NCBI GenBank assembly: GCA_963836755.1
Contig: CAWIKF010000001.1
Coordinates: 576,001-640,000, forward strand
DNA: 64,000 bases
Direction: 5' to 3'
Origin: an uncultured Verrucomicrobiae bacterium
GTDB lineage: Bacteria > Verrucomicrobiota > Verrucomicrobiia > Chthoniobacterales > Chthoniobacteraceae
The notes below the pieces were generated by a model that worked only from the letters and a program-made list of their open reading frames with translations, searched no databases and was not told the DNA's origin. The translations under genes were made by a program, and so were the position numbers. Shown piece after piece: positions 24,060 through 54,443 of the stretch. Position 1 is the stretch's first letter. Each line of letters begins with the position of its first letter.

Positions 24060-26813
24060 ATGAGCGACCGCCGCAAACCGTATCCGTTTGACCGCATCGA
24101 CGCCCGCTGGCAGGCGCGGTGGGAAAGCGAGCAGACCTTTCACGCGCCGAATCCCGGCGAGCCCGGGTTCGATCCGACGCTGCCAAAATTCTACGTGCTC
24201 GATATGTTCCCGTATCCGAGCGGCGCGGGTCTCCACGTCGGCCATCCGATCGGCTACCTCGCGACAGACATCCTCGCGCGCTACAAAAAAATGCGCGGCT
24301 GCAACGTCATGCATCCGATGGGTTGGGATGCATTCGGTCTGCCCGCGGAGCAATACGCCATCAAGACGGGCCAGCATCCCGCGGTCACGACCGCGCGAAA
24401 CATTGCCGGCTTTAAGGGGCAGCTCCAGCGCATCGGGCTCGCGTATGATTGGGCGCGCGAGGTCAATACCACCGATTCGGGTTATCTTCGCTGGACGCAG
24501 TGGATCTTTTTGAAAATTTACGACTCGTGGTTTGATCCGGAGCAAAACAAAGCTCGTCCGATCTCCGAGCTGGTCGAGAATTTGAAATCAAAGTTCGCGG
24601 ATCCCGTTGAATTGCGCCGCGAAGTGGATGCCCACCGCCTCGCTTACGTCTCCGAGGCACCGGTAAATTGGTGCCCGGCCCTCGGCACCGTCCTCGCGAA
24701 CGAAGAAGTGATCGACGGCAAGAGCGAAGTCGGCGGCCATCCCGTCGAACGCCGACCGATGCGCCAGTGGATGCTTCGCATCACCGCTTATGCGCAGCGG
24801 CTGATCGACGAACTCGACGGCTTGGATTGGCCCGAAGGGATCAAACTTTTGCAAAAAAACTGGATTGGCCGCAGCGAAGGCGCCGAGGTTCGGTTTGAAA
24901 TCGATGTGGCTGCGCCGAAACCAGCAGGCGATGAGCCGGCTCTCCCCGGTATCCCGGTTTTCACCACGCGGCCCGACACTCTTTTCGGCGCGACCTACAT
25001 GGTGCTCGCGCCGGAGCATCGGCTCGTCGAGCAAATCAGCACCGAAGAACAATGGCCCGCTGTTCGCGACTACCGCGAGCGCACCGCGCGCAAGAGCGAC
25101 CTTGATCGCACCGAGCTGGCCAAGGAAAAAACCGGCGTCTTCACGGGCGGATCCGCGATTAACCCGGTCAACGGCGAGCGCATCCCGATCTGGATCGCCG
25201 ATTATGTCCTGCCCGGTTACGGCACCGGCGCGATCATGGCCGTCCCCGCGCACGACGAGCGCGATTGCGAATTTGCGAAAAAGTTCGACCTGCCTATCCG
25301 CGAAGTAGTCGCTCCCATCACATCCGCGCCCGTGACGACGAATCCCGAAAAGGCCTGTTTTGCCGGCGAGGGCGTTGCCATCAATTCCCAGATCCTCGAT
25401 GGCTTGCCCACGACCGAGGCCAAGAAACGCATCGCCGAATGGCTGGAAGAGCGCGGGCTTGGTAAAAAGACGATCAATTACAAATTGCGCGACTGGCTTT
25501 TCTCCCGCCAACGCTATTGGGGTGAGCCGTTTCCGATTGTCTGGGAAACCGGAGCCGATGGGCAGTTGCACCACCGCGCATTGGCGGAAACCGAGCTGCC
25601 GCTGCTCCCGCCGGAACTCGACGACTTCAAACCGACCGGCACGGGCGAGCCGCCGCTTGCGAAGGCGGTGGATTGGATTCGCTACTCCGACACCGCGACC
25701 CGCGAGACGAACACCATGCCGCAATGGGCCGGCTCGTGCTGGTATTACCTCCGCTATTGCGATCCGCGGAACGAGGCGCGCTTCGTCGGGGTCGAGGCTG
25801 AGCGATACTGGATGGGTGCTTTGGGTTCGAAACCCGGGAATTTGGATGCTGAGGGCCGGGCTATGGATTCAAAGTTTCAACCTGCGGGTTCAAATGTTCG
25901 ATCCTCGGATGCAAATCCTCATCCTGGCGGCGTCGATCTTTATGTCGGCGGGACCGAACACGCGGTGTTGCATCTCCTTTACGCCCGCTTTTGGCACAAA
26001 GTCCTCCACGATCTCGGCTACCTGAGCACGCGCGAGCCATTCCAGCGCCTCGTCAATCAAGGCCTAATCCTGGGCGAAGATGGGCAGAAGATGAGCAAGT
26101 CTCGCGGCAATGTGGTCAATCCCGACGACGTGATCGCCGAATACGGCGCGGATGCGTTCCGCTGTTATGAGATGTTTATGGGGCCGCTGGAGCAGATGAA
26201 GCCTTGGTCGATGACCGGCGTGGAGGGCGTGTCGAGGTTTCTCGCGCGCGTGTGGCGGCTGGTGATAGAGGAAAACCAGTCTGGCGAATGGGTGCTGTCG
26301 GCCGCCGTGCAAGATGCGCCGCTCGAGAAAGCGCAGTTGAAGGTGATGCACGCGGCGATCAAGAAGGTGACCGCGGACATCGAGGCGCTGAGTTTTAACA
26401 CGGCGATTTCGGAGTTGATGATCTATGTGAACGCGTTTGTGAACGCGCCGGTGAAGCCGTTGGCAGCATTGCGGACGCTGTTGGTGCTGCTGAATCCGTT
26501 CGCGCCGCATCTGACGGAGGAGCTTTGGGAGATTTTGGATTCGAAGTTCGCCGAGGCGAATCAAAGACCGTTGCTCTGCGAGCAAAAGTGGCCCGAGTGG
26601 GATGAAAGTTTCCTCGTGGAGGATGAAATCGACATACCGGTGCAGGTGAACGGCAAGCTGCGCGACAAAATTACCGTCAAAAAAGACGCAACCAACGCTG
26701 AAGTCGAAGCGCAGGCGCTTGCTGCACCAAAAATTGCCGAGCACACAGCCGGGAAAACCATCCGCAAAGTTGTGGTCGTCCGCGGCAAACTCGTCAACGT
26801 CGTCGCCGCCTAG
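24060..26813 (+). CDS. leuS: Leucine-tRNA ligase (with in-frame repeat insertion)
   Basis: [21 protein letters not shown] editing domain, KMSKS. Confidence 0.97.
25821..25925 (+). repeat. Five degenerate 21-nt units inserted in frame in leuS
   Basis: Cores TGGGTTCGAA, TGGATGCTGA, TGGATTCAAA, CGGGTTCAAA, CGGATGCAAA at exact 21-nt spacing. Confidence 0.75.
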
Positions 26814-27781
26814 CGGCGAAAGCGCCGCGCGAAACCTGCGAGCACCATGCAGCCCGCGGTGAGCTGAATCGCACTCGGCGGCTCGGGAATGACGGCGTTA
26901 ATCTGCGAGGCGTATTGCGAAAGGTCGGCCGCGGAAGTTTGATCGCCGAAGACGGATGACCCGGGCGGCTGTCCGCTGAAGCCACTCGTGGAGACGAGGA
27001 TGCCCGCGAGCTCCCAGCCGGAGCCGGTTTTGTAAAAAACCGCGCCGCCGGAGTCGCCGGGCGCGGCCTGCGCTTCGCCGGTGTTGTTGTCGAAGGTGGT
27101 GTAAAGAGTTTTCACCGTCCCGTAGCCGTCGTCGATCGTCGCAGTGCCGGTGAGATTGTTCGTCCCCCAGCGGAGCGCCTGTCCGCTTCCCTGTTTGTAA
27201 CCGTAGTAACTGTAATTGCTGCTCGTCGATTCGGTCCAGGTCCAGGGGCTCGTGGATTTGTCGACGCTCCAATAGGTGAGGAAGTCCGCGCGGTTGATGC
27301 CGTTGCCCATGAGAACGAGCGGCGCGTTTGCCGGCGGCGCCGTGCTGGCGATGGTGAGCGATGGGATTCCCGCAGGAATAGTGGTGAGCTGGAAAAGCGC
27401 GAGGTCGGTCGGCGTCCCATTGTTTGTCAGGCGGACGGCGGTGGAGGCGTTGACGGAATATGCGTTGCCGTCGAGCGATACGCCGCCAAAGGAGAAGCCC
27501 GTGCTGCTGGAGTTGTCCGAGCCGTTGCGCACTTCATGATACGCGCTGATCATCCAGCCGTTTCCGAGGTAGACGCCGCTGGTGTTGAAGCCGTCCTCGG
27601 AGTCGTAAACCAACCCGACGTTTTCAAAGCCGAAGTCATCCGCCGGAGCGGATGTGTAGGTGGCGTCGTTGTAAGTGCCACTGCCCGCCGCGTCCACCAC
27701 AGCAAACGCATGAGGCGCGAGCGCGGCGAGGCCTGCGATCCATAGCGACTTCTTAAAAAGCACCCGCAAAAAGTGCAGCAA
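26810..27781 (-). CDS. Secreted trypsin-like serine protease with PEP-CTERM sorting signal
   Basis: Triad contexts SAYH, TDLALF, GDSGG; C-terminal VIPEP, hydrophobic helix, RRFRR; exact start uncertain. Confidence 0.8.
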
Positions 27782-27839
27782 AAGCTCGCGCGGTCAAGGG
27801 CGCTTTCGCCCCAAAATTAGCAAAACGTTGGGCCGTTTT

Positions 27840-27983
27840 CTAGACTCTTCGTCCCGTCACAAAGTGCAGGATAAAGACGATCAGCGCGATGACGAGGAGG
27901 AGGTGAATCAAACCTCCCGCAACATGCAAGGCAAAGCCGCCGCCCCAAAGAATCAACAGGATAATGGCAAGAATGAGTAACAT
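27840..27983 (-). CDS. Small membrane protein (DUF5670/lmo0937-like, 47 aa)
   Basis: Manual translation MLLILAIILLILWGGGFALHVAGGLIHLLLVIALIVFILHFVTGRRV; GGAG RBS upstream. Confidence 0.8.
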   Translation of the reverse strand: MLLILAIILLILWGGGFALHVAGGLIHLLLVIALIVFILHFVTGRRV

Positions 27984-28007
27984 AATGGTCTCCTTTGTAT
28001 CTCGGTT

Positions 28008-28502
28008 TTATTTCGAAGCAGCCGCGACGTTGATGACTGATTTGGCGAGCTTCGACAACTTCTTGTCGGTCGCTGCTTCCTCGTTCAGCGTTTGCTGCAA
28101 AAGCTGTGCACCTTCCTTGTCCTTGAGCAAATCCGCATACGTGCGGACGCAGCCGTAGCCGGCTATTTCGTAATGCTCGACGCGCTGCGCGGCAGAAATC
28201 AGCCCGGCATCGCGCACTTCGTCGTCGCCTTCTTTTTCAATCATCTCCGCACCTTCTTCGAGCACACCTTCCATTCCCTTGCACTTCGGGCCGCGAGTGG
28301 TTTCGTCGTGGCTCTCGAGAATTTTTTCGAGGCGTGCGGCGTGTTCCTTCGTCTCCTCGAGGTGCATCTTGAAGCCTTCCGCGAGTTGCGGGTTTGAGGC
28401 CGCCTTGACCATCTTTGGCAGCGCCTTGATGATTTGCTTTTCAGCGCTGTAGAGGTCTTTGAGTTCGGTGACGTAAAGGTCTTTGAGGGTTTCTAACTCC
28501 AT
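28008..28502 (-). CDS. Ferritin-like DUF892 (YciF-like) protein
   Basis: ELKDLYSAEKQ, HLEET, CKGMEG, AAQRVEHYEIAGYG. Confidence 0.9.
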   Translation of the reverse strand: MELETLKDLYVTELKDLYSAEKQIIKALPKMVKAASNPQLAEGFKMHLEETKEHAARLEKILESHDETTRGPKCKGMEGVLEEGAEMIEKEGDDEVRDAGLISAAQRVEHYEIAGYGCVRTYADLLKDKEGAQLLQQTLNEEAATDKKLSKLAKSVINVAAASK

Positions 28503-28611
28503 AAGTTTTGTTTTTTCGGTGGTGCTTGTTTTCTTTGTCGCCGCGCATTTTGGCGGCACAGACGATACGGAACGTTGTGTAAAAGCGGCTGTGTCGATTT
28601 TTTAAACATTG

Positions 28612-29529
28612 ATGGAATCTCCCGATGAAATGCATGCGACCTCGCGCCGCGGTCGCGAGCTGAGCGTGGTCGGTCGCTACGCATCGCGCTCGGCCGCTTA
28701 CGAACGCGCACTGGTGGTGCTCGCGATGGAAATTCCGCATTGGATCATCCGCGACAGCGGGACGTTTCAGCTCTGCGTCGAGCCGCCGCGCGCAGCCGCC
28801 GTGCTCGCGGAGCTGGAGAAATTTGAGCGCGAGCGCGTCGCCGACGCTGCGGCGCCGGAGCCGGTGGAAAAAACTTCCACGCACTCTCTTTTCGCCGCCG
28901 CGGCAGTGATGGCACTTTTCTTTGCGTTGCAAAACATCGGTCCCGCGTGGCTGGAAGATGCGGGTGCGAGCGACAGCGCGCGCGTGCTGCATGGCGAATG
29001 GTGGCGCGTGCTCACGGCGCTGACTTTGCACGCGGATTTTTCGCACATCGGCGCGAACCTTGCCGCCGGGCTCGTCCTCGCCGCGTTCCTGCTGCCGCTC
29101 TTCGGCGCCGGCTGGACTTGGCTCGGCATTTTGCTCAGCGGCGCGCTCGGCAACTGGCTCAACGCCTGGGGCCATCGCGGCGAAATGCAAAACTCGATCG
29201 GCTCATCGACTGCGGTCTTCGGCGCGCTCGGACTTTTGGTCAGCGCGCAAATCGTCTCGCGGATTTTCGCGCTACGAAAAATCTCCACGCGGGATGTGCT
29301 GCTGCCGCTCGGCGCGGCGCTCGCGCTGCTTGCGTATCTCGGCGTCGGCGATGCACAGACCGATTTCACCGCGCATTTTTTCGGGCTGCTCGCCGGCCTG
29401 CCGCTCGGTGCGGCGGCGCTCGCGCTGCGATTGAAACAGCGCACGCCGCCCGCGGCGCAACTTGCGCTCGGTCTCGCCGCGCCCGCGTTGCTCGTGCTCG
29501 CGTGGGCATTCGCAATCGCACACGCGTGA
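28612..29529 (+). CDS. Rhomboid family intramembrane serine protease
   Basis: EWWR, HADFSHIGAN, GSSTAVFG, AHFFG. Confidence 0.85.
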   Translation: MESPDEMHATSRRGRELSVVGRYASRSAAYERALVVLAMEIPHWIIRDSGTFQLCVEPPRAAAVLAELEKFERERVADAAAPEPVEKTSTHSLFAAAAVMALFFALQNIGPAWLEDAGASDSARVLHGEWWRVLTALTLHADFSHIGANLAAGLVLAAFLLPLFGAGWTWLGILLSGALGNWLNAWGHRGEMQNSIGSSTAVFGALGLLVSAQIVSRIFALRKISTRDVLLPLGAALALLAYLGVGDAQTDFTAHFFGLLAGLPLGAAALALRLKQRTPPAAQLALGLAAPALLVLAWAFAIAHA

Positions 29530-29570
29530 TTGCTTTCCGATCCGAGCTTCGTGCATTTTGACGCTCCCGC

Positions 29571-30626
29571 ATGGACACGCTCACGATCACCGAACTCCGC
29601 CGCGCAGCAATGGAAGGGCGAATCGAGGCAAAAATTCACGCGCAGATCGAGACGCTGACGCACAAGGAAACCAGCCAGCAAAAACCGTTTTGGGAACTGA
29701 ACCTCGCCGACGCGGAGGCGAAACTGAAGCTGCGCGCGTGGAGCGATTCACCAAATTATAAACAATGCGCGGAGCTCGACACCGGCGGGTTTTTAGAGAT
29801 CAGCGGCGACTTTTCCCACAACCCGAATTTCGGCATCGAGTCGAAACGCTGGACCTGCCGCGCGCTCGATGACGAAGAACGCGCCGCGCTGCTCGGCGGT
29901 CCGCGAGAGCTCCGCGAGCGGCAGGCGCGCGATTTTGGGTTCATTTCAAAAACCGCTGCGGCGCTCGCCGAGCCGCGTCTGCAGGCGCTTTGCGGACTTT
30001 TTCTCGAGCAGCACGGCGAACGATTCCGCCGCACCGCGGCCGCACGCGGGAATCACCACGCCCGCCGCGGCGGCCTGGTCGAGCACGTCGCGCAAATGAT
30101 GCGCGCCGCCAATGCGTTATCGGATGTTTATCCGCAGTTGAACCGCGAACTTTTACTCGCTGGGGTGCTTTTTCACGATTGCGGAAAGCTCTGGGAAAAT
30201 CCGGTCGCGGAAACAGGGTTTAACATGCCTTTTGTGGAAGCCGGCGAACTTTTAGGCCATATCACCATTGGGATCGAGCTCGTCAATTTGCTTTGGCGCA
30301 AACTCGATCTCGAGCAGTGGAGCGAGCTGCGGCCGGCATCGGAAGATGTCCGTCTGCACTTGCTGCACCTCATCGCGGCACATCACGGCGAGCTGCAATT
30401 TGGCTCGCCGGTGCCGCCAAAAACTCCCGAGGCGCAAGCGCTGCACTACATCGATAACCTCGACGCAAAAATGGAAATGTTCGCGCTCGCTTATGCGCGA
30501 CCTGCCACGCTCGGGCCACGGATTTTCGAACGCCTCTGGCCGCTGCCTGGCAACGAAATCGCGCCGCTGCAAAAACTTGGCGCGAGCGCGGATTCCGCGC
30601 GCAGCCAGCCTGCAGCCGGGATTTGA
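29571..30626 (+). CDS. OB-fold plus HD-domain protein (YhaM/CBF1-like exoribonuclease)
   Basis: HHARRGGLVEH, LFHDCGK, LLGHI, AHHG..FGSP, DNLDAK. Confidence 0.8.
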   Translation: MDTLTITELRRAAMEGRIEAKIHAQIETLTHKETSQQKPFWELNLADAEAKLKLRAWSDSPNYKQCAELDTGGFLEISGDFSHNPNFGIESKRWTCRALDDEERAALLGGPRELRERQARDFGFISKTAAALAEPRLQALCGLFLEQHGERFRRTAAARGNHHARRGGLVEHVAQMMRAANALSDVYPQLNRELLLAGVLFHDCGKLWENPVAETGFNMPFVEAGELLGHITIGIELVNLLWRKLDLEQWSELRPASEDVRLHLLHLIAAHHGELQFGSPVPPKTPEAQALHYIDNLDAKMEMFALAYARPATLGPRIFERLWPLPGNEIAPLQKLGASADSARSQPAAGI

Positions 30627-30694
30627 CGCCGAGGCGGCACGCCAAAAAACGTGTTGGTTTCCGGCAAACTTTTGCTACTTTCTCCAGCCCGCAT

Positions 30695-30767
30695 GGTGGC
30701 CGTAGCTCAACGGTAGAGTCCCAGATTGTGATTCTGGTTGTTGCGGGTTCGAATCCCGTCGGCCACC
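30695..30767 (+). tRNA. tRNA-His (GTG)
   Basis: G-1 plus GTGGCCG/CGGCCAC acceptor stem, D arm TAGCTCAACGGTAGAG, anticodon arm CCAGA-TTGTGAT-TCTGG, T loop GGTTCGAATCC; full CCA not encoded. Confidence 0.95.
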
Positions 30768-30774
30768 CACCTGT

Positions 30775-32250: not shown

Positions 32251-32298
32251 CGGGTGCTGGAGATTATCGGGGGCTGTGGCGCGCTGCAAATCGCATCA

Positions 32299-33222: not shown

Positions 33223-33335
33223 TTATTTGAAGGGCGCAGTTTGCGCAGGCACAGCCCGACGCGATATCTTTTTCGATAATCCACCAATAACTCATCCACT
33301 TCACTTTTTACCATTTAACGACGAGGTTTTTCTGA

Positions 33336-34373: not shown

Positions 34374-34458
34374 CTTTTTTCCGCAATGTCGAACCTTGAT
34401 CGAAAGCAGGTGTCTGACTCTCCTGAATCGATTTTGAGCGCAGACATTCTGCACCCCA

Positions 34459-38171: not shown

Positions 38172-39743
38172 ATGATCGAACAAGTCAAACGGATTCTCGG
38201 ACTGACCAAGCAGACCGGCATTAAGCTCGTCATCAACAGTGAAAAACTCGAACGCCGTGTCGCCCTTCTCGAAAACGGACAGCTAGAGGAATACAACGTC
38301 GAGCGCGAAAGCGATCGCAACATCGTCGGCAGCATTTTCAAGGGCCGCGTCAAAAACATCGAGCACGGCCTCAAGGCAATGTTCGTCGACATCGGCTTCG
38401 AGAAAAACGCCTTTCTGCATTTCTGGGACGCGCTTCCGGCCGCGCTCGATAGCGGCATCGAGCAGGTCGATCGCCCCGGCGGCAAAAAGAAAAGCACACG
38501 CATCTCCTCCGCCGACATCCCGAAGATTTACCCCGTCGGTTCCGAGGTGCTCGTGCAGGTGACCAAAGGCCCCATCAGCACCAAAGGCCCGCGCATCACC
38601 ACGAACATTTCCCTGCCCGGGCGTTACCTCGTCCTCATGCCTTTCAGCGACCAGAGCGGCATCTCGCGAAAGATCGAATCGCCAAAAGAACGCGAGCGCC
38701 TTCGCAAAATCCTGCAGGAACTCAAAGTCCCCGAGGGCATGGGCGTCATCGTCCGCACCGTCGGCGAGGGCCAGCGCGCCCGCTACTTTGTCCGCGATAT
38801 CGGCCTTCTGCTCGAGCAATGGCACGCCATCGAGGAGCAGATGAAAACCCAGCCCGCCCCCGCGTGCGTCTTCCGCGAGCCCGACCTCATCGAGCGCACC
38901 GTCCGCGACTTTTTGACCGACGAAATCGACGCCGTCTTCTGCGATGACGAAGCAGCCGTCAAGCGCATGCAGGACCTCGTCGGCCAAATCTCCCGCCGCT
39001 CCCGCAGCCGCATCCAATTCTACGCCGAGCACCAGCCGATCTTTGAAAAGTTCAACGTCCAGAAACAAATCGACGACGCCTTTCATCGCCAGGTCTGGCT
39101 GAAATGCGGCGGCTACATCGTCATCGATGAAACCGAGGCCCTCATCGCCATCGACGTCAACACCGGCCGCAACAAAGGCGGCAAAGAAGTCGAGAAAACC
39201 ATCTTCCAGACCAACATGGAAGCCGCCGAGGAAATCGCCCGCCAGCTCCGCCTGCGGAACATCGGCGGCCTCATCATCGGCGACTTCATCGACATGAAAA
39301 ACCGGCGCGACCAGCAGGCCGTCTTCCAGCGCATGAAAGAGCGCCTCCGCCGCGACAAAGCCAAGACCCACGTCCTCCCCATCTCGCCCCTCGGCCTCAT
39401 GGAAATGACCCGCCAGCGCGCCCACGAAAGCCTCAGCGGCACCGTCTACGAGCCATGCCCCAATTGCCACGGGCGCGGCCGCGTCAAAACCGCCATGACA
39501 ATGAGCGTCGAGCTCCAGCGCGCGCTCCACTCCATCATGCGCAAACATCAGGACACCATCCACGACATCCGCGTCATCGTGAACCCGGCCGTCCTCCAGC
39601 GCCTCCGCGAGCAGGACGAGGAACTGCTGATCAATATCGAGCGCAAATACGAGGGCCGGCTGACATTCCGAGCCGACCCCACGTATCATCTCGAGCAATT
39701 CATGGTCACCGACGCCAACAGCGGCCTCGAGTTGAAATCCTGA
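38172..39743 (+). CDS. Ribonuclease E/G family protein
   Basis: S1 domain GSIFKGRV, TEALIAIDVNTG, RLRNIGGLI, CxxC..G. Confidence 0.93.
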   Translation: MIEQVKRILGLTKQTGIKLVINSEKLERRVALLENGQLEEYNVERESDRNIVGSIFKGRVKNIEHGLKAMFVDIGFEKNAFLHFWDALPAALDSGIEQVDRPGGKKKSTRISSADIPKIYPVGSEVLVQVTKGPISTKGPRITTNISLPGRYLVLMPFSDQSGISRKIESPKERERLRKILQELKVPEGMGVIVRTVGEGQRARYFVRDIGLLLEQWHAIEEQMKTQPAPACVFREPDLIERTVRDFLTDEIDAVFCDDEAAVKRMQDLVGQISRRSRSRIQFYAEHQPIFEKFNVQKQIDDAFHRQVWLKCGGYIVIDETEALIAIDVNTGRNKGGKEVEKTIFQTNMEAAEEIARQLRLRNIGGLIIGDFIDMKNRRDQQAVFQRMKERLRRDKAKTHVLPISPLGLMEMTRQRAHESLSGTVYEPCPNCHGRGRVKTAMTMSVELQRALHSIMRKHQDTIHDIRVIVNPAVLQRLREQDEELLINIERKYEGRLTFRADPTYHLEQFMVTDANSGLELKS

Positions 39744-39767
39744 CCCATCTGCGGCCGGGCAAAGTCG

Positions 39768-39862
39768 GCCACGGATGCACACGGGTGAAACACAGATACG
39801 GATTCCCATGCGGCCGTCCGTGGTTTCTCCACATCCGTGTTTCATCCGTTCACATCCGTGGC
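39768..39862. repeat. Palindromic element with 30-nt inverted arms
   Basis: Left arm GCCACGGATGCACACGGGTGAAACACAGAT (39768-39797) vs right arm ATCCGTGTTTCATCCGTTCACATCCGTGGC (39833-39862); related arm at about 40310-40330. Confidence 0.75.
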
Positions 39863-40143
39863 TGAAAACTCGGCGTCCCAACGAGAAAACCCGACGTCCG
39901 GTGGAGAAAACTCCACGTCCGATGGAGAAAAGCTGAGGTCCCGCGGGGAATTTCTCACGTCCCGTTGAGAAACTTCACGTCCCGGGGAGAATTTCCCACG
40001 TCCGATGCAGAAGTTTTCACGTCCCGGGGAGAATTTCCCACGTCCGGTGGTGAAGTTTTCACATCCCGAGGAGAAGTTCTGACGTCCCGTGTAGAAGTTT
40101 TCACATCCCGAAGCCATTTCCTCACGTCCCGCCGTCGAAAACG
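39851..40143. repeat. Degenerate 21-nt-period tandem array (about 14 units)
   Basis: Core (C/G)AC(G/A)TCC recurs every 21 nt (one 20-nt unit), usually with GAA at offset 14-16 and variable segments between. Confidence 0.9.
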
Positions 40144-40175
40144 GATGATTTGAGACAAATCTCTCGCGAAATCAC

Positions 40176-40281
40176 CGGGAGCGCACGCTTCCAACGTGCA
40201 GTCGCTGGCATCCTGCCGGCGACATCCGCGAAGGATTCGGCAAGGATGCCGAACCCGGCACGCTGGAAGCGCGCGCTCCCG
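40176..40281. repeat. REP-like palindromic element
   Basis: GGGAGCGCACGCTTCCAACGTGC ... GGCATCCTGCC ... GGCAAGGATGCC ... GCACGCTGGAAGCGCGCGCTCCC nested inverted repeats. Confidence 0.8.
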
Positions 40282-40392
40282 ATAAGAGCCGTCCGTCTCA
40301 TCCCAAAAAATCCGTGTCCCATCCGTGGCTGAACCAAATGGAACCCGCACGAATCTCCTTCCCAATGCACCCGGAAACGTCACTCTCCCCAA

Positions 40393-41184
40393 ATGCCTGA
40401 AAACACACCCGCCACCCCAGCCGCTCCCGCCCCGAAAAAACACAAAACCCCCGGCCCCATCGACAGCGGCCTCGTCGCGCAGCTGCGCCTCGACCAGGGG
40501 ATCATCGACTCTGCGCACGACGAGATGAGCACCGACCCCACATTCGTCACCGCCCTCAGCACCCATTTTCTCGACCGCGAAAACACCATCGCCATCACCC
40601 CCGCCAGCCTCGCCACACTTTCCACACAGGCCGGCTCCGCCCTCGCCGCATCCGGCGCGATCACCGCCGCGCAAGCCGCTCTCGACAACGTCACCGACGA
40701 CGAAGGCAACGACGCGAAAACCGCCATCGCCGCCATCCGCGCCGTGCAAGGCGCAGCGAAGGAAAAATACGAAGAAAGCGCCCCCGCGCGGCTCGGCGCC
40801 TACTTCATCGGCCACCGCCTCCACTCCCGCGACGATATCAGCACGGCCGGCACCGCCGCCTACCAGCAATTGCGCACCACCGATGCGAGCGGCAACCCCG
40901 TCACCCCGCAGGACACGCTGCCCGGTTTCACACAACCGCGCATCGATCAGCTCAAGATCGACCTCGGCAGCTACCTCACCATCGAGACCGAGCAAAGCGG
41001 CGCGCAAAAAGATACGACCGATGCGCGCAACGCCTTCGCGAATGACTGCGCGCAAGTCAGCCGCCGCCGCCGCAAACTGCAACTCGCCGTAGATGTCGAG
41101 CGTCCCTACAGCAACCCCGCGAACACCATGTTGCCCGCCTTAACTCATGGTTTTGTCCAAAGGCATCTGGAGGCGGCGGCGTAG
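40393..41184 (+). CDS. Hypothetical Ala/Thr-rich alpha-helical protein, 3' end possibly replaced
   Basis: 263-aa ORF with strong C-ending codon bias to about 41128, then an abrupt switch to AT-richer sequence. Confidence 0.7.
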   Translation: MPENTPATPAAPAPKKHKTPGPIDSGLVAQLRLDQGIIDSAHDEMSTDPTFVTALSTHFLDRENTIAITPASLATLSTQAGSALAASGAITAAQAALDNVTDDEGNDAKTAIAAIRAVQGAAKEKYEESAPARLGAYFIGHRLHSRDDISTAGTAAYQQLRTTDASGNPVTPQDTLPGFTQPRIDQLKIDLGSYLTIETEQSGAQKDTTDARNAFANDCAQVSRRRRKLQLAVDVERPYSNPANTMLPALTHGFVQRHLEAAA

Positions 41185-41592
41185 CGTTATATGCATTTGA
41201 GGACCAATTGTCCTTAAGGCCTATTCCCACGCTTTACAATGTTTAACTTCACACGAGCAGGCCTTAGCTTAGAGAAGGCTGCAAAGATGGCGGCAGCCGG
41301 GGACGAACGCATGACAGCACACCTCGGGAAGGCGGAGCGCATATCTTGAAGTCACGTTTCACGTTTCAGGAGACACTAGCGACGATCTCCTTGTATGAGC
41401 GCGTGCTAGCGGCCGCGCAGAATCTGACTGGCACGATTCCGATTAGGCAGAATTGCGAAGAGATGAAGATGCGTCTGCAAGAATACAGCTCGCAATGGAC
41501 ACAATAAACCTAGCTATCTGGCTGCTCTCCATTGTTATGATCGCCCGTTGGCTACTATCTTTGCCATTGTCGACAAATCCTAGCTCAAGATT

Positions 41593-41883
41593 ATGACTCC
41601 ACGAAACAATCCGGAATTTAAGGTAATCGTCGCTCACTGCGAGGTCTTCCAATTCGCCTGCAACCAAAATTGGGATTTGATGAGACCCATCACAGAAAGA
41701 ATTCGTGTGTGCGAGGAGTGCTCTGAGCGAGTTTATTTTTGCCGCAATGAGACAGAGTTTCGGAAGCACGCTTCCCAGGGCGAGTGTGTTGCTATTGAGA
41801 TCGTTTCTGATGGGCCATCTGTGTCCGAAACAGCGAAGCGCAGAATTCTTGCCGGAATTCCCATCCTACCGAAGTTCGATTGA
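41593..41883 (+). CDS. Small Cys-rich hypothetical protein
   Basis: FACNQNWDLM...RVCEECSERVYFC...HASQGECVA; inside AT-richer island. Confidence 0.6.
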   Translation: MTPRNNPEFKVIVAHCEVFQFACNQNWDLMRPITERIRVCEECSERVYFCRNETEFRKHASQGECVAIEIVSDGPSVSETAKRRILAGIPILPKFD

Positions 41884-41890
41884 TACAATC

Positions 41891-42109
41891 ATGCCTCCCA
41901 AACGCCGATTAACCCGCAAGAACCTTCCTTACATTGCCGATGCTTTTTCGCAGGCGCTCTCGGCCATTAAGGAGCTTGACCATGCCATGTATTTCTATGC
42001 TTCAGAGGATCACCCCATGCGTTTACGAGTTGGGGATCTCTACCGCCGCATTGAGACCCTGCATGCCGAATTCGCAGAAGCTGTCAAACGTAAGGAACAA
42101 CACTTATGA
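41891..42109 (+). CDS. Small hypothetical protein (72 aa), putative cassette gene
   Basis: ATG at 41891; stop lies just upstream of an attC-like site. Confidence 0.5.
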   Translation: MPPKRRLTRKNLPYIADAFSQALSAIKELDHAMYFYASEDHPMRLRVGDLYRRIETLHAEFAEAVKRKEQHL

Positions 42110-42122
42110 ATCACAACAACGG

Positions 42123-42182
42123 GCCTAGCCCTGCGATGCAGCTAACAGGCTCTGCTTGTAGCTAATCTTGTTCTCGTTAGGC
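42123..42182 (+). mobile_element. attC-like integron recombination site
   Basis: R'' GCCTAGC (one change from RYYYAAC), inner hairpin AGCTAACAGGC/GCTTGTAGCT, R' GTTAGGC; 60 bp; next ATG 14 nt later. Confidence 0.7.
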
Positions 42183-42196
42183 GCTTTCCACGCACC

Positions 42197-42607
42197 ATGA
42201 GATTCGTTGTGTTAGCCGCGACTTTCTCGCTCCTTCCGGTGATTGCGTTCGCTCAATTCGGAGTCGAGGATACTCGCAATCTCGGCTTTGGATTCCGGTA
42301 TGAGACGCATGCAGAACCAACCAACTCTTCGTTCGAGAGCATCACACATCAGGCTTATCTATACTATGGTGATCGCAAGCTTTGCAATGTCGGCGAGTAT
42401 TCCATCGCTCCTAGCGGTAGATTCGCAATCTATCAAGATGGCCCTTCGGGAACGCTCTTTCTATTTCGTCGCGCTGACGGCAAGATATTCCAGCTTACTC
42501 CTAAGTCCATCGGATTTCCCGAGACGTTTGTATGGCACGAGCGAGTCCACACCGTTGAGGTTCATCTCGAACACATCAAGACCCCGGCGATATTCCAATT
42601 ACCATGA
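42197..42607 (+). CDS. Exported hypothetical protein, putative gene cassette
   Basis: Signal peptide MRFVVLAATFSLLPVIAFA; flanked by attC-like sites. Confidence 0.65.
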   Translation: MRFVVLAATFSLLPVIAFAQFGVEDTRNLGFGFRYETHAEPTNSSFESITHQAYLYYGDRKLCNVGEYSIAPSGRFAIYQDGPSGTLFLFRRADGKIFQLTPKSIGFPETFVWHERVHTVEVHLEHIKTPAIFQLP

Positions 42608-42715
42608 CAAGATGCGCTGCAGCGAACCGGTCCGCACGTCACCTGCTTCGGCCGCCGCCTTTCCACCATTCATTGGCAGGAGCTCCCTCGTAGCTGACCT
42701 TAATTTACATTAGAC
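42602..42715 (+). mobile_element. Degenerate attC-like site
   Basis: ...GCGCTGCAGCGAACC...GTAGCTGACCTT...ATTAGAC parallels the first site; R' is mutated (ATTAGAC); GTG start 2 nt later. Confidence 0.5.
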
Positions 42716-42717
42716 CC

Positions 42718-43191
42718 GTGAAGAAGCTGCTCCTACAGATCGCTGTTTACTTGAGCTTCTTTAGCTTTACTGCTTCTGGGCAAGATTATCTCAAGCGATA
42801 CGATAAGCCGCTAACCTATAAGCAGGCTATCAAAGAGAAGGACATCGATTTTCCTCTCCCTGCATCGAGCCATGATATCTACTATGCGATGTATGGCGAT
42901 TGGCAGGCTTACACGCGGCTGGTGCGTTTTGAGGCGCCGGTGGCGGATTGCGTGAAGCAGGTCGATGCGGTAATTGCGTGGGACGATAAGCTCTACAAAC
43001 GGACTTCCGCATATCATCGCTTCAAAGTCACCCACGTTGATGCGCCTGGCGCTGGATATCTGGATCCGACACCTTGGATTACTCCGGGGACAATCAAACG
43101 TGGATTGTATGCCGGCAAGGAGTCGAGCCACACTCCTGAGATCTGGATCGATCTCGACAGAGGTATCTTTTACTTCAAGGAGTGTGATTAA
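42718..43191 (+). CDS. Exported hypothetical protein, putative gene cassette
   Basis: GTG start, signal peptide KKLLLQIAVYLSFFSFTASG. Confidence 0.65.
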   Translation: MKKLLLQIAVYLSFFSFTASGQDYLKRYDKPLTYKQAIKEKDIDFPLPASSHDIYYAMYGDWQAYTRLVRFEAPVADCVKQVDAVIAWDDKLYKRTSAYHRFKVTHVDAPGAGYLDPTPWITPGTIKRGLYAGKESSHTPEIWIDLDRGIFYFKECD

Positions 43192-43215
43192 ACTTCTGTC
43201 CGCTCCTTTGCAGAG

Positions 43216-48489: not shown

Positions 48490-51158
48490 TCCTGCGATTG
48501 GCCGACGATGCCGAAGCTGCGCGTCACGAGCGCGGTCCAGCCGGTTTGATGACTCGCGCCGAGGCCGCGTCCCGTCTCGCCGTGAAAATATTCGTGGAAA
48601 AGCACGAGGTCGCGCCAATGCGGATCATCGGCAAAACGGGTATCATCGCCGTTGCACGGACGGCGTCCATTTTCATCCGGCATGAAAATTCCGGAGAGCC
48701 GCCGGGCCAGTTCCTGAGCCACTTCGCAAAGGTTTAACATTTTTCCGGAACCGGTCGGGCACTCGACTTTCAGCTCGTCGCCATAAAAATGGTGATAACG
48801 CTCGAGCGCCTCGATCAGCAGATAATTGAGCGGAAACCAGACCGGCCCGCGCCAGTTGGAATTGCCGCCGAAAAGTCCGCTGCGCGATTCCGCCGGTTCG
48901 TAATCGATGCAATATTCCGTGCCGTCGATCTGCAAAGCGTAAGGGTTTTGATAAACACGTGAAAGCGAGCGGACGCCGTGCGGCGAGAGAAATTCGTTTT
49001 CATCCAGCACGTAGCGCAGCACGCGCAGAAGGCGCTCGCGCGATGGGATCGCGAGCAACCGCCGCGTGAGCGGCTCGCCGTCGAGCGATTTTTTATCCAT
49101 GTAGGAAATGTAGTTCGCGAGATCGGGGCGATTGTGGATGAACCAGCGCAGGCGCTTGCGAAAGCCGGGCAGTTTTTCGATCACGGACTGCTCGAGAATT
49201 TCCACCGCGAAAAGCGGGACGACGCCGACGAGCGATCGCACGCGAAGCGGGATGGCACGGCCCTCGACGAGCAATTGATCGTAATAAAATCCGTCCTCCT
49301 CATTCCAAAGTCCGTTGCCGCCGAGCGAGTTCATCGCATCGACGATATCCACGAAATGCTCGAAAAACTTTGAGGCGATATCTTCGTAAGCTGGCTTCGT
49401 TTGCGCGAGCTCGAGCGCCATCGAAAGCATCGTGCCGCAATAAAAAGCCATCCACGCCGTGCCATCGGCCTGCTGCAGCGCCTGGCCATTCGGAAGCGGT
49501 TTTGAGCGATCGAAAAGTCCGATGTTGTCGAGACCGAGAAAGCCGCCGGAGAAAATGTGCTTGCCGTTGACGTCCTTGCGATTGACCCACCACGTAAAGT
49601 TTAACAAAAGTTTTTGGAACGTGCGCTCGAGAAAAAGTGTGTCGCGCTCGCCGGCGGGAGCGCTGATTTTATAGGCGCGCCAGCAGGCCCACGCGTGCAC
49701 GGGCGGATTCACGTCGCTGAAATTCCACTCGTAAGCGGGGATCGCGCCGCTCGGGTGCAGATACCATTCCCGCAAAAAAAGCAGGAGCTGCGACTTCGCG
49801 AAATCCGGATCGAGACGCGAAAATGGGATCATGTGAAAAGCGAGATCCCACGCGGCATACCACGGATATTCCCATTTCTCCGGCATCGAAATCACGTCGC
49901 TGTTAAACAAGTTTAGCCAGTCGAAATTCCGCGTGTGCGCGTGGCCCGGCGGCGGGGGCGGCATTGCGGGGTCGCCGGCGAGCCAATCCTTGATGATGTA
50001 ATTGTAAAACTGCTTTGTCCAAAGCAGCCCGGCATAGGCCTGGCGGACGATGGCGCGCTGCGGGTCGGTCAGCGTCGACGCAACTTTTTCCGCGTAGAAC
50101 GCATCGGCCTCCGCGATGCGTTTCGCGAAAATTTCTTCAAAGTCTGTGAACGCATCGTTGTCGTTTGTTGCCGAACCGTTTGTCTTCGGGCGCAAGCGCA
50201 TCCGCAGCGTCGCGCTTTCTCCGCTCGCGAGGTTCAAGACGTAATGCGGCGCGGCCTTTGTGCCGACGGCGCTGGGATTCACGGCGTCGGTTTTTCCATT
50301 CACGACAAATTCGTGAAACGCATCTTTAACAAATGGAGAAGCATTCGCAGAGTTGAACAAGCGTTGCTCGTTCGTTTCATTCTCGGTGAAAAGAAACGGC
50401 GCTTCTGTCTCGATGAAAAATTCAAACTGCCCGAGCCCCGGGTGCGTCGCGATCAGCGCGGAAGCGCTCTGTTGCTCGATTCGCGGCTTGAGCGTGCAGC
50501 CTTCGTGCGAACAGCCCCAGCTCCAGGTGTTGCGAAAAAAGAGCGTCGGCAAAACGTGAATCTCCGCAGCGTCAGGCCCTCGATTGGCGATGGTCAGCCG
50601 GATGAGAATGTCGTCGGGCGCGGCTTTCGCGTATTCCGCCGTCACGTCGAAGTAGCGCGATTCGTCGAAAATGCCGGTGTCGAGCAATTCGAATTCGCGC
50701 TCGTCCTTCCCACGGCGCGCGTTTTCCTCGATCAGCCGCGCATACGGAAATTCCGCGTGCGGGTATTTGTAGAGCCCTTTCGCGTAGGAATGCGTCGGCG
50801 TCGCGTCGAGGTAGAAATAACATTCCTTCACATCCTCGCCGTGATTTCCCTGCGGATTCGAGAGGCCGAAAAGGCGCTCTTTTAAAATGGGATCGCGGCC
50901 ATTCCAAAGCGCGAGCGCAAAGCAGAGACGGCATTCGCGGTCGCACCAGCCGAGCAGGCCGTCCTCGCCCCAGCGGTAGGCGCGGCTGCGCGCGTGATCG
51001 TGCGGGAGATAATTCCACGCGTCGCCGTCGGCCGAATAATCCTCGCGCACGGTGCCCCATTGGCGCTCGGAAAGGTAGGTGCCCCAGCGCTTCCAATTCT
51101 GCGCGCGCGCCGCGTCTTCATCGAGGCGCTGTTGCTCTGCGATCGGCGCGTCAGGCAT
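48486..51158 (-). CDS. GH63/MGH1-like glucosidase
   Basis: SERQWGTVREDYS, WEYPWYAAWDLAFH, NSNWRGPVW, EYFHGETGRGLGASHQTGWT. Confidence 0.85.
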   Translation of the reverse strand: MPDAPIAEQQRLDEDAARAQNWKRWGTYLSERQWGTVREDYSADGDAWNYLPHDHARSRAYRWGEDGLLGWCDRECRLCFALALWNGRDPILKERLFGLSNPQGNHGEDVKECYFYLDATPTHSYAKGLYKYPHAEFPYARLIEENARRGKDEREFELLDTGIFDESRYFDVTAEYAKAAPDDILIRLTIANRGPDAAEIHVLPTLFFRNTWSWGCSHEGCTLKPRIEQQSASALIATHPGLGQFEFFIETEAPFLFTENETNEQRLFNSANASPFVKDAFHEFVVNGKTDAVNPSAVGTKAAPHYVLNLASGESATLRMRLRPKTNGSATNDNDAFTDFEEIFAKRIAEADAFYAEKVASTLTDPQRAIVRQAYAGLLWTKQFYNYIIKDWLAGDPAMPPPPPGHAHTRNFDWLNLFNSDVISMPEKWEYPWYAAWDLAFHMIPFSRLDPDFAKSQLLLFLREWYLHPSGAIPAYEWNFSDVNPPVHAWACWRAYKISAPAGERDTLFLERTFQKLLLNFTWWVNRKDVNGKHIFSGGFLGLDNIGLFDRSKPLPNGQALQQADGTAWMAFYCGTMLSMALELAQTKPAYEDIASKFFEHFVDIVDAMNSLGGNGLWNEEDGFYYDQLLVEGRAIPLRVRSLVGVVPLFAVEILEQSVIEKLPGFRKRLRWFIHNRPDLANYISYMDKKSLDGEPLTRRLLAIPSRERLLRVLRYVLDENEFLSPHGVRSLSRVYQNPYALQIDGTEYCIDYEPAESRSGLFGGNSNWRGPVWFPLNYLLIEALERYHHFYGDELKVECPTGSGKMLNLCEVAQELARRLSGIFMPDENGRRPCNGDDTRFADDPHWRDLVLFHEYFHGETGRGLGASHQTGWTALVTRSFGIVGQSQE

Positions 51159-52264
51159 TTACCTGGATCACGTTTTTAATTCCGGTCGCCGGACCGAGCA
51201 CAAGATTCTCCAGATCGCTCATCGGGAAATGTCCGGTGATGAGCGATTCGGTCGCTCCCGGCCAGCGTGCGGAAAATTTCCCGAGGTCCTCGATCGCCGC
51301 GATGTATGCGCCGCGGCCGGCGTTGACGGAGCCGAAGACGACCTGATTTTTCAAGACGAGATTGCGCATGATGAGATCGGTATCGAGCTCGACGGGTGCT
51401 TTGCGGCCCGGCACTCCGGTGAAAATGAAAATGCCGTTTGTGCCGAGGACGCGGAGAGTGTCGAACGCGAATTTCGATGCGCCGGTCGCTTCGTAAACGA
51501 GATCGATGTTGCCAATTTCCTGCGCGAGCTGGTCGATGGTGTGGTCGCTCGATGAGATGTAAGTGCCGCCGATTTTTTGCACGAGCTCTGAGCTCGGATT
51601 CGGCGCGGCGTCGCGCGAGTAAACAAATGTTTTAAAACCTGCGATGACCAGCGCCATCGCGCCGAGCAGGCCGACGGGGCCCGCGCCGAGCACGAGCGCT
51701 TTGTGCACGTAGCTGTCCGTCGCGTCCGACGGCTCGCCCCACGGCAGCCGCTTTTGCATTTGCAAAGCCTCCGAGATCGCCTTCTCCGCGATCGTCAGCG
51801 GCTCGGTCAGCACGCCGACGTCGTTGCAATTCCGGCGGCACGCGAAACATGTATTTCTCCTCGTCCACGACGAGCTCCGTCATGAAGCCGTGCAGCTCAT
51901 CGATGCCGCGTTCCTTGAAGTCGCCGGTGTAACAAAAATCCTGCCGCCCCGCGCGGCACGCGTAGCACTCGGGATGATCGCACGGCCTGCGAACCATGGT
52001 CACCACTAGATCGCCGGGTTTTAAACTTTGCACGCCAGAGCCGATCTCGATGACTTCGCCGAGCGATTCGTGACCGAGCACGAGGTAGTCGGAGCCGGCT
52101 GGCGGGCGGCCGTAATCGAAATGGCAAATCTCCTTGTCGGTGCCGCAGACGCCGACTTCGCGCATGCGAAGTTTTACTTCCGTGGGCGACGAAATTTGCG
52201 GCTCGGGATGATCGTCGATGACTTTGATCTCGTGAGTTTTTGGAAAAACGGCGACGGCTCTCAT
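51151..52264 (-). pseudogene. Zinc-dependent glucose 1-dehydrogenase split by a +1 frameshift near 51825
   Basis: N half GVCGTD, LGHE, CxxxxCxxC; C half LTEPL, VLGAGPVG, EATG, FGSVNA in another frame. Confidence 0.75.
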
Positions 52265-52336
52265 TGGAATCACGATGCCAGAGGTCGAGCGAAACCACAG
52301 TTGAATTTTTCAATTCACCCGCTAAGCTTCCGCGTC

Positions 52337-52405
52337 ATGATCGTTTGTTTAAACAGCCGACTTAAGCCGCTCCGGGCCCAGCTCGGAGCGATTCTGTTTT
52401 TCTAA
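52337..52405 (+). promoter_or_regulatory. Candidate leuA leader peptide with terminator-like hairpin
   Basis: 22-aa ORF MIVCLNSRLKPLRAQLGAILFF; stem CGCTCCGGGC/GCTCGGAGCG (52368-52390) followed by a T-rich tract. Confidence 0.4.
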
Positions 52406-52465
52406 CCCGGCTGCGCTGCTCATGGTGGAGGCGGCGGAGGCCGCGCGTCTTTTCCACCGTGAATT

Positions 52466-54127
52466 ATGATTTCAAATCCAGGCAGCAAATATCGTCCTTT
52501 CCCGCCCGTCGCCTTGCCGAACAGGCAATGGCCCGACCGCGTCCTCACCGCCGCGCCCACATGGTGCAGCGTCGATCTGCGCGATGGCAACCAGGCACTC
52601 GCCGTGCCGATGAACGTCGCGCAAAAACTTGCGCTCTTTGACGCGCTGGTCCGTTGCGGCTTCAAGGAAATCGAAGTCGGTTTCCCATCGGCCTCCAATA
52701 CCGAATACGAATTCATGCGCCGCCTCATCGAGGACGGCCGCATCCCCGACGACGTCACCATTCAAGTCCTCGTGCAGGCTCGCGAAGATTTGATCGAGCG
52801 CACCGTCGAGTCGCTGGCCGGCGCGAAACGCGCGATCATCCACATGTATAACAGCACGTCGCCCGCGCAGCGCCGGTGGGTCTTCGGCTTGGAAAAAGAA
52901 GACATCGTCAAAATCGCCACGCGCGGCGCGCGCTGGATCAAGGAACGCCTCCCGCGCCTCGGCCAGACCGACGTCCACTTTCAATATTCCCCCGAAAGTT
53001 TCTCCGCCACCGAAGTGGATTTCGCGCTCGAGATTTGCGAGGCGGTCATGGAAACGTGGCAGCCGACGCCCGAGCGGAAAATCATCCTGAATCTCCCCGA
53101 CACCGTCGAGGTCGCCATGCCGAACGTCTATGCCGACCAGATCGAATGGTTCTGCACGCATTTAAAAAATCGCGACCGCGCCATCATCAGCCTCCACACG
53201 CACAACGACCGCGGCACAGGCGTCGCCGCCACCGAGCTCGGCCTCCTCGCCGGAGCCGAGCGCGTCGAGGGCACACTTTTCGGCAACGGCGAGCGCACCG
53301 GCAATCTCGACATCGTCATCGTCGCCCTCAATCTCTACATGCACGGCATCCACCCCGGCCTCGACTTCTCGCACCTCAACGAACTGCGCGAAATCTACGA
53401 ACGCTGCACCGGCATGACCGTCCCGCCCCGCCAGCCCTACGCCGGCGAGCTCGTCTTCACCGCATTCTCCGGCTCCCATCAGGACGCCATTAAAAAAGGA
53501 CTCGCAGGCCGCGGTGGCGCCGGCGCGATCTGGGACGTGCCGTATCTGACCATCGACCCCGACGACATCGGCCGCCATTACCGCGAAGTCATTCGCGTCA
53601 ATTCCCAGTCCGGCAAAGGCGGCGTCGCCTACCTGCTCGAGAGCGAATGCGGCATCATCCTGCCAAAAGACATGCAGCGCGAGTTCGGCCCCATCGCCAA
53701 CGACGAAATCGACCGCCTCGGCCGCGAAGTCAGCGCCGACGAGCTCCGCCAGCTCTTCGCCCGCGAATACCTCGACCGCGCGAGCCCGCTCGCGTTGCAG
53801 CACTTTCACGCCGACGGCACAGGCGGCAAGACCCGCTGCCGCTCCACCGTCGTCCGCGACGGCGCGCAGCTCGATTTGACCGGCGAAGGCAACGGCCCCA
53901 TCGCCGCCTTCGTCGAGGCTTTGAAAAACGCCGGCCTCCCGCGCTTCGAGATCGCCACCTATTATGAACACGCCATCGGCGGCGGCGCGGCGGCCTCCGC
54001 CATCGCCTACATCCAGATCAAACTTGCCGACGGACGCGCCCGCTGGGGCGCCGCCATCGACACGAACATCGAGCTCGCCCCGATCAAAGCTCTTCTCAGC
54101 GCGTTAAACCGCTCGCTTAAGGGATAA
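52466..54127 (+). CDS. leuA: 2-isopropylmalate synthase (yeast/actinobacterial type)
   Basis: WCSVDLRDGNQAL, SLHTHNDRG, GNGERTGN, AFSGSHQDAIKKG, GNGPIAA. Confidence 0.95.
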   Translation: MISNPGSKYRPFPPVALPNRQWPDRVLTAAPTWCSVDLRDGNQALAVPMNVAQKLALFDALVRCGFKEIEVGFPSASNTEYEFMRRLIEDGRIPDDVTIQVLVQAREDLIERTVESLAGAKRAIIHMYNSTSPAQRRWVFGLEKEDIVKIATRGARWIKERLPRLGQTDVHFQYSPESFSATEVDFALEICEAVMETWQPTPERKIILNLPDTVEVAMPNVYADQIEWFCTHLKNRDRAIISLHTHNDRGTGVAATELGLLAGAERVEGTLFGNGERTGNLDIVIVALNLYMHGIHPGLDFSHLNELREIYERCTGMTVPPRQPYAGELVFTAFSGSHQDAIKKGLAGRGGAGAIWDVPYLTIDPDDIGRHYREVIRVNSQSGKGGVAYLLESECGIILPKDMQREFGPIANDEIDRLGREVSADELRQLFAREYLDRASPLALQHFHADGTGGKTRCRSTVVRDGAQLDLTGEGNGPIAAFVEALKNAGLPRFEIATYYEHAIGGGAAASAIAYIQIKLADGRARWGAAIDTNIELAPIKALLSALNRSLKG

Positions 54128-54135
54128 CCGGTCGC

Positions 54136-54443
54136 GGTGGCAACCGGTCGGCAATTGGTGCCGACGGGACTGAGATTAGCGCCCACCGGAACGGAAATGG
54201 TGACCACCTTTTGGGAATGGTGCCCACCTTTTGGAAATGGTGACCACCTCTTTGAAAATGGTGACCACCTTTTGGAAATGGTGACCACCTTTTTGGAAAT
54301 GGTGACCACCTTTTTGGAAATGGTGACCACCTTTTTGGAAATGGTGACCACCTTTTGGAAAATGGTGCCCACCTTTTTGAAATGGTGACCACCTTTTTGA
54401 AATGGTGACCACCTTTTTGAAATGGTGGCGACTTTTCGCAACC
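54136..54443. repeat. 20/21-nt tandem array (GGTGACCACC-T4/5-GGAAAT)
   Basis: Eleven near-identical units at 54199-54423, three degenerate 21-nt units before and one after. Confidence 0.93.

Follow-up and report, generated by a model that had tools for sequence, protein, structure and literature searches.

Tandem repeats whose units keep a constant length while their sequence varies have been reported in Bacillus by Subirana and Messeguer (PMC8161180). In the portion of that paper drawn on here, the repeats form species-specific families of 20-21-nt units with a short conserved core, the match to two turns of the helix is noted, and a protein polymerising on the repeats is proposed. Two further systems are close in other respects, as far as the cited parts of their papers describe them. 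On plasmid RA3, the gene for the long alpha-helical protein KfrA, which has an N-terminal helix-turn-helix (HTH), follows an operator of five 9-bp repeats overlapping its promoter (PMC7783346). BrickBuilt, a MITE (miniature inverted-repeat transposable element) of Porphyromonas gingivalis, is a dispersed, strictly intergenic minisatellite of one 23-nt unit with non-repeat ends, terminal inverted repeats and outward promoter activity, which gains and loses whole units and has no cognate gene (PMC4596501). Here we describe three arrays of about 21 nt per unit in a 64,000-nt stretch of an uncultured Verrucomicrobiae genome (hereafter the window; genome G000, C1:576001-640000), located inside leuS, downstream of rne/rng and after leuA. 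The genome is 3.18 Mb and 96% complete; C1 and C2 denote its contigs, and k marks approximate positions in kb. Judged by the part of the Bacillus study cited above, the arrays are members of that published class. We further consider, with an even balance of confidence and doubt, that a single class of cassette gave rise to all three, as whole copies or as fragments; in it, a tract of about 11 two-turn units precedes the gene for an unnamed helical protein. The cassette protein likely uses the tract as a phased landing strip, next to a probable promoter.

25816..25920, + strand: array 1, five 21-nt units, in frame in leuS, in the LeuRS loop between YWM and GGVDLYVGG
39830..40143, + strand: array 2, 15 units with a non-palindromic core and a weak 42-nt higher order (Tandem Repeats Finder, TRF; unit segmentation)
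54128..54443, no strand assigned: array 3, near-palindromic core; of its 15 units, three divergent ones are followed by 12 homogenised ones

A genome-wide period of two helical turns

An earlier note on this DNA had described three unrelated arrays with a common 21-nt period and a layout of conserved core plus variable segment, and all three arrays were recovered. The period is exact in array 1, where the cores are spaced by exactly 21 nt, and is broken by a single 20-nt step among the 15 cores of array 2 (39831 to 40124). Array 3 is not strictly 21-periodic: its 15 cores (54136 to 54424) are separated by steps of 20 (7 times), 21 (6) and 22 nt (1), and TRF reports a period of 20/41 with 92-93% matches. 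Nor does the core-plus-segment layout describe most of array 3, the bulk of which consists of near-identical copies differing in a T run; it holds only in the first three units, the only ones that diverge. TRF misses array 1 even at score 30; its lag-21 identity of 0.52 was reached by 0 of 20,000 codon shuffles at lag 21 and by 0 of 4,000 at any lag.

The genome-wide histogram that the note had proposed does show a peak at 21. In a scan of the whole genome by lag, 62 windows were counted for lag 21, 61 for lag 42, 15 for lag 41 and 4 for lag 20; other lags gave 0-11 windows, most of them 0-1, the highest being codon multiples (11 at lag 33, 9 at lag 24). TRF returned 82 rows of period 21. Filtering out 3- and 7-periodicity reduced 89 candidate arrays to 80, and 72 were kept after removal of eight native coiled-coil or low-complexity coding repeats. 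The genome thus curated holds several 20-21-nt repeat families of differing sequence. They comprise upwards of 30 unit types, and the units have a core that is short and conserved.

Most of these arrays (67 of 72) lie outside gene frames. Leaving five poorly segmented arrays out of the step counts, the 62 non-coding arrays (median 11.5 units) contain 567 steps of 21, 76 of 20 and 11 of 22 nt, so that 87 of the 654 steps measure 20 or 22 nt and several arrays alternate between 20 and 21. The mean of 20.9 nt corresponds to about 10.45 bp per turn, and the array period looks like helix geometry, two turns of DNA. The five in-frame arrays keep 21 in 47 of 47 steps. Given this mix of steps around a mean of 20.9 nt, and the gene links described below, the best fit among the three mechanisms that the note had offered is binding of a protein in phase with two helical turns.

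Two other origins of the period were rejected. An origin in heptad coding was set aside on the 67 of 72 arrays outside frames and the 29 of 62 with non-21 steps, and a heptamer (3 x 7) origin on the lag-7 signal, which arrays 2 and 3 lack and array 1 shows only weakly (0.32). In 400-kb samples of relatives we counted 15 arrays in G004, 12 in G002, 10 in G141 and 1 each in G006 and G096, where counts take in some coding repeats and control lags give 0-1. Named records with close protein relatives belong to the Chthoniobacterales (Verrucomicrobiota).

Genes linked to the arrays

The note had suggested looking for genes enriched beside arrays, and two protein families were found linked to arrays across relatives. 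The first, A2, comprises 418 representatives at 50% identity (E<=0.001), with no Pfam match among 133 members at cut-off. An upstream array of period 21 or 42 was found in 21 of 29 intact A2 loci, or 17 of 25 without 2 duplicates and 2 own-genome rows. The second family, A3, combines a helical domain with an FN3-like C-terminus (Z 11.0), its helical part being barely covered by fold search; 23 of 27 A3 loci carry an upstream array (22 of 26 without the own-genome row) and 0 of 27 a downstream one. The loci counted in both families are kin and hence non-independent. About 24 of the 72 arrays of G000 face a cassette gene, a stub or a chimera (curated by eye), and 3 of 12 arrays examined in G004 face another small helical family (by eye). 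Two proteins 75% identical to each other have different array cores.

The A2 model, that of an intact paralogue, P0007 (C2:1698816-1699586), is a bundle of three long helices (predicted local distance difference test, pLDDT, 97). Two of the predicted helices have 56-57 residues, which by arithmetic would roughly equal the 71 A of 21 bp. The model has an extended basic N-terminal arm, and A2 an invariant RRR patch. No HTH match was found in the P0007 model and Foldseek returned no match to it at E<=0.001. No homology was detected between A2 and three single cassette proteins. DUF6261 (PF19775), a weak Atlas lead (0.87, 32% of members), was rejected as an identity: it had no genome match at E<=0.1 and no match in the A2 members listed.

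Arrays of 41/42 nt at C2:764.7k, C2:1471.2k, C2:2122.3k, L293 and L283 accompany one longer cassette protein family (309-348 aa). Arrays with a 42-nt period only are also found beside two proteins of about 206-241 aa, and doubling of the period with protein length is no strict rule.

The window arrays as members of dispersed families

The cores of the three window arrays do differ, as the earlier note had it. Their independence did not survive: every one of them is part of a family with several copies, and the premise of three independent loci fails because the period comes down to them from a class of cassettes. The common cause that the note had inferred is supported.

Array 2 is the window's gene-flanked copy, in an inserted islet with the following parts.

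38172..39743, + strand: rne/rng (PF10150), left border of the inserted islet
39765..39865, no strand assigned: dispersed palindromic repeat with 38-nt arms, 79% complementary, with more copies in the genome
40176..40281, no strand assigned: hairpin resembling repetitive extragenic palindromic (REP) sequences, between array 2 and the gene, with 39-nt arms and no U tail
40282..40392, + strand: half palindrome and A/C-rich leader up to the start codon, seen in the sequence and also in the second copy
40393..41184, + strand: cassette gene P0002, unnamed helical-bundle family A2, without a Pfam match
41126..43215, no strand assigned: lower-GC cargo in place of the 3' end of P0002 (50.8% GC vs 65.8% in the gene)

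The islet, 3.5 kb long, lies between rne and htrA. In G002, about 14 nt separate rne from htrA, its convergent neighbour, which is the empty arrangement; the flanks of leuA and rne are mostly without synteny in relatives, and this is the only exact empty site found among the loci listed. The palindromic repeat reaches with its right arm across units 1 and 2 of array 2. The repeat also forms the left end of the segment shared with a second copy at C1:273583-274243, in which palindrome, array, REP-like hairpin and leader recur with 89% identity over 662 bp, followed by seven codons of the cassette gene and then an FN3 tail. P0002 has lost its conserved final ~15 residues, with other sequence in their place from about 41125, at the junction with the lower-GC DNA. 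Three open reading frames of the cargo were tested and gave no Pfam match.

The hairpin at 40176..40281 matches hairpins at C1:60092-60135 and C1:60675-60722, around a Y1 domain in alaS that resembles REP-associated tyrosine transposases (RAYT). The labels REP-like and RAYT are used provisionally.

Array 1 lies in frame in an enzyme gene.

24060..26813, + strand: leuS (leucyl-tRNA synthetase; PF13603, PF00133, PF08264), host of array 1, with the frame open across the array

Its unit family is shared with an in-frame array in a class II ribonucleotide reductase gene (C2:52.3k) and with arrays at C2:356.0k and C2:1728.1k. Array 1 has its best profile matches in the ribonucleotide reductase array and these two others (score 32.5; column shuffles, 0 of 300; best-of-all controls, 0 of 60). 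The array at C2:1728.1k heads a 43-codon stub of the array-2 gene family A2, which scores 23 bits against A2, a level to be compared with at most 4.3 in 300 shuffles. The assembly has thin read support here: one contig of run X1, possibly the source sample, spans 25218-25849 with 0 differences and bridges the left leuS/array-1 junction. No joint skipping array 1 or array 2 was found in the contigs examined. An X1 contig does skip 42183-42611, within the cargo at 41126-43215.

In-frame arrays were found in leuS, alaS, ispG, nrdJ and acrB-like genes, those of AlaRS, IspG, the ribonucleotide reductase and the AcrB-like protein having 11-13 units each. They are read as tandem heptad repeats whose peptides differ between arrays, and the AlaRS and IspG arrays match gene-flanked arrays (r 0.89 and 0.88). 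In relatives, the corresponding loops are short or carry other repeats. Among 29 relatives, the LeuRS loop of array 1 is short in 20 and has other inserts in 9; G002 has a 42-nt array in this loop and a different 21-nt array in alaS.

The same loops were seen to hold other insertions. Heptamer tracts lie in frame in the LeuRS, IspG and reductase loops of relatives (L002, L006, L027, L158, L172), G006 included, and the leuS of G014 (L029) carries a domain of ~190 residues and unknown family, in frame, in the same LeuRS loop. In AlaRS (L135, G000:C1:58953-62516), the Y1/RAYT-like domain occupies residues ~594-834 in frame between REP-like hairpins, besides the 21-nt array; similar domains occur in long open reading frames of G006 and G008.

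Array 3 stands between two genes and is followed by a short box, treated below.

52466..54127, + strand: leuA; array 3 begins at the base after its stop codon
54455..54467, + strand: shared end box TTTACTCTGTAGA, pointing away from array 3, 84 nt before the GH2 start
54540..56663, + strand: GH2 glycosidase gene (PF02836/PF02837) downstream of the end box, start per gene model

Array 3 is the gene-less member of a four-copy family. It aligns to the gene-flanked array at C1:228.7k, which adjoins a helical+FN3 gene (A3) at C1:227.8k (C1:227791-228495), and to orphans at C1:29.6k and C2:713.5k, sharing units and its right end with these three. Both ends are conserved between the copies and the middles are homogenised; such homogenised middles, together with degenerate ends, are as slippage predicts. 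An array after leuA was found in 0 of 14 relatives among the matches listed.

Arrays at G000:C1:228.7k, C2:708.6k and C2:1903.7k, with an exact or degenerate end box, face large secreted-looking proteins that all start MKYKQSF, which suggests that an array was co-opted as the upstream region of these proteins. The sole Rfam match in the window is one tRNA gene at 30696-30767.

A shared end box

The box after array 3 recurs beside arrays of other types. The genome contains 31 copies of the 10-mer TTACTCTG, the one at the end of array 3 being at 54456. An array lies no more than 100 nt from 18 of these copies, where 0.34 would be expected, and the 18 arrays so flanked cover ten unit types in our own grouping. 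The box points away from the array in 15 cases and into it in three. Two arrays have a degenerate inverted box at the other end as well; otherwise it stands at one end. In five relatives the 10-mer lies beside the array in 10 of 30 loci (G001 5/7, G002 4/7, G136 1/7 with four at contig ends, G006 0/4, G031 0/5). By eye, it was also seen beside tRNA-like sequence without an array in G006 and G002 (L105, L110, L121).

Where the box lies between array and cassette gene, in G000, G001, G002 and G091, it stands 20-104 nt before the start codon, a distance that suggests the -10 region of a promoter; the end box is possibly such a region. A sigma-70 scan does not pick the box and no consistent -35 was seen by eye. 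Repeats of a separate kind, without the end box, flank the gene for a Y1 transposase at C2:2206.4k.

Interpretation and alternatives

Our preferred reading, which we would neither press nor discount, is that the arrays are phased protein-binding sites, operator-like in the manner of KfrA, copied around the chromosome as BrickBuilt is. A rod-shaped cassette protein would bind one unit per two turns, reading geometry more than sequence, and would repress the promoter beside the array. Reading by geometry would hold the period while the unit sequence drifts, and slippage or unequal exchange would rewrite the interior of an array. Pieces of the cassette could be dispersed by a copying route such as end-joining capture or borrowed HUH/RAYT activity, with selection keeping those that land between genes or in loops that tolerate them. 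Unit order is preserved between copies at different loci, and their break points on the gene side vary from the array only, through array plus leader and stubs of 7, 35 and 43 codons, to nearly the whole gene. Ku and two Y1-type domains are present in the genome.

Several observations weigh against this reading. The cassette proteins are net acidic (pI, the isoelectric point, 5.3-6.3), no DNA-binding fold was found in them, a VIA search with A2 returned only generic helical bundles (best Z 9.7), and FN3 is not known as a DNA-reading fold. Because the proteins are acidic and match only generic bundles or FN3, we infer their binding to DNA from layout and geometry only. No homology is detectable between A2 and A3 (hhalign probability 0.3%), which leaves a single origin unproven. 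Array density and the number of A2 and A3 genes do not go together: G096 has 9 A3 matches and 1 array per 400 kb, and G004 has no A2 or A3 match yet 15 arrays per 400 kb. No array stands within 600 nt of one full-length gene of cassette type, at C1:551.6k. Arrays 1 and 2 lack the end box, as do all 30 foreign A2 matches in loci L066-L103; the box varies in position (gene side, far side outward, far side inward), and in the array 3 family it faces away from the A3 gene. Finally, no mover gene, terminal repeats or target duplication was identified, flank comparisons being made with relatives too diverged for exact empty sites.

A bolder version of the same idea is unlikely. It would make the cassettes a new class of self-spreading DNA-geometry elements: rod proteins of several unrelated families would each coat a two-turn array, the end box would be the fixed start of one-ended copying, gene-less arrays with their promoter would form a chromosome-wide network of sites organised or regulated by the proteins, and heptad repeats would now and then enter essential enzymes.

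Among the alternatives, the one that survives best is a selfish repeat, in which array and gene are a minimal mobile element, the protein helps to move or protect the array, perhaps as a scaffold on which a host recombinase works, the box is a recombination or nicking end, and any regulation is a by-product. It fits the lineage-specific insertions at stop codons and in frame, the many decayed and chimeric copies, the homology between copies that often ends a few bases beyond the box, and the two arrays with a degenerate inverted box. However, no catalytic fold was found in either protein, the box is found on only 18 of 72 arrays, at one end and in either orientation, and the opposite ends are uneven and showed no target duplication. 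We consider it unlikely.

It is quite unlikely that a general host factor, a nucleoid protein or the RNA polymerase machinery, binds the arrays, as Subirana and Messeguer proposed, with the adjacent genes as passengers of the same mobile units. Against it, linkage in other genomes is strictly upstream-only, at 22 of 26 A3 loci and 17 of 25 A2 loci, and two of the related genomes sampled (G006, G096) are nearly arrayless at 1 per 400 kb. Consistent with a host factor are the roughly two thirds of arrays without a cassette gene, the A/T tract in 53 of 67 consensus units, the period common to non-homologous protein families and the acidity of the proteins.

An RNA role, in which transcripts of the arrays would start at an end-box promoter and be processed to single units that guide or inhibit the protein, much as type III toxin-antitoxin systems do, is very unlikely, and the processing into short RNAs that the note had also offered found no support: no Rfam match was found in the arrays and RNA folding of array 2 is no better than that of shuffles (z -1.06). 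Array 3, which is palindromic, folds strongly (z -7.2), arrays stand upstream of a gene of unknown function, and three of the 18 boxes are directed into the array; but the other 15 point away, orientation relative to the gene varies, the 20/21 alternation suits helix geometry, and no nuclease fold was found. The last option, a dedicated low-fidelity enzyme adding or copying 21-nt units de novo at unrelated loci, is hardly credible despite the more than 30 unit types in one genome and the different cores of close protein paralogues, since dispersed copies keep their unit order, their ends are conserved while their middles homogenise, and no match to Cas1 (PF01867) or a reverse transcriptase (RVT_1) was found in this 96%-complete genome. 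A search of the genome for PDDEXK_3 (GxxExxY) gave no match.

Comparison with known systems

Comparison with CRISPR arrays, with type III toxin-antitoxin loci, with MITEs and with Rickettsia palindromic elements turned up, in each case, tested features that the arrays lack. A CRISPR array was rejected on head-to-tail 21-nt units without spacers and no Rfam CRISPR match. Membership among type III toxin-antitoxin loci was rejected on the folding of array 2 and on the + strand of 39700-40450, where no terminator-like site was found. These loci do share a tandem array upstream of a protein gene (PMC3401426). As far as the cited part of that paper goes, ToxI-family repeats are 31-46 nt long, form pseudoknots, and are followed by a terminator and an RNase toxin, whereas here the units are of 21 nt, with no shared fold and no nuclease fold. 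No RNase fold of ToxN/CptN/TenpN type was found, the A2 members being without a Pfam match and their model matching only generic helical bundles.

Rickettsia palindromic elements resemble our in-frame arrays by inserting in frame into unrelated metabolic genes; in the part of the review cited (PMC10969869) they are palindromes of ~150 bp with a conserved peptide, whereas ours are tandem arrays with differing peptides and a linked gene. In the MITE test, terminal inverted repeats at both ends were not found, the box standing at one end in 18 arrays with a degenerate second box in 2. With BrickBuilt, as given in the cited part of PMC4596501, the arrays share dispersal and non-repeat ends, and probably also outward promoter activity and gain or loss of whole units; they differ by their many units, one-sided box, in-frame copies and linked gene. 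KfrA serves as a working analogy for a long alpha-helical protein encoded after its repeat operator. In contrast to KfrA as the cited part of PMC7783346 presents it, no HTH is seen in the models here, the tract has ~11 units of 21 bp, and there are dozens of chromosomal copies and orphan arrays. In our literature search, where subscription journals were mostly outside reach and supplements left out, no paper was found linking such arrays to these genes.

The closest likeness remains that to the Bacillus repeats. There, as here, one genome holds several 20-21-nt families, mostly non-coding, with a core in all units; in the portion of PMC8161180 cited, no linked gene, end box or in-frame insertion is named. 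The published puzzle had hypothesised an unnamed binding protein, and the present genome supplies candidate proteins with their cognate arrays, an in-frame control on the period and a shared end box. Essential enzymes acquire heptad repeats from these arrays, which may in addition bring promoters to new genes.

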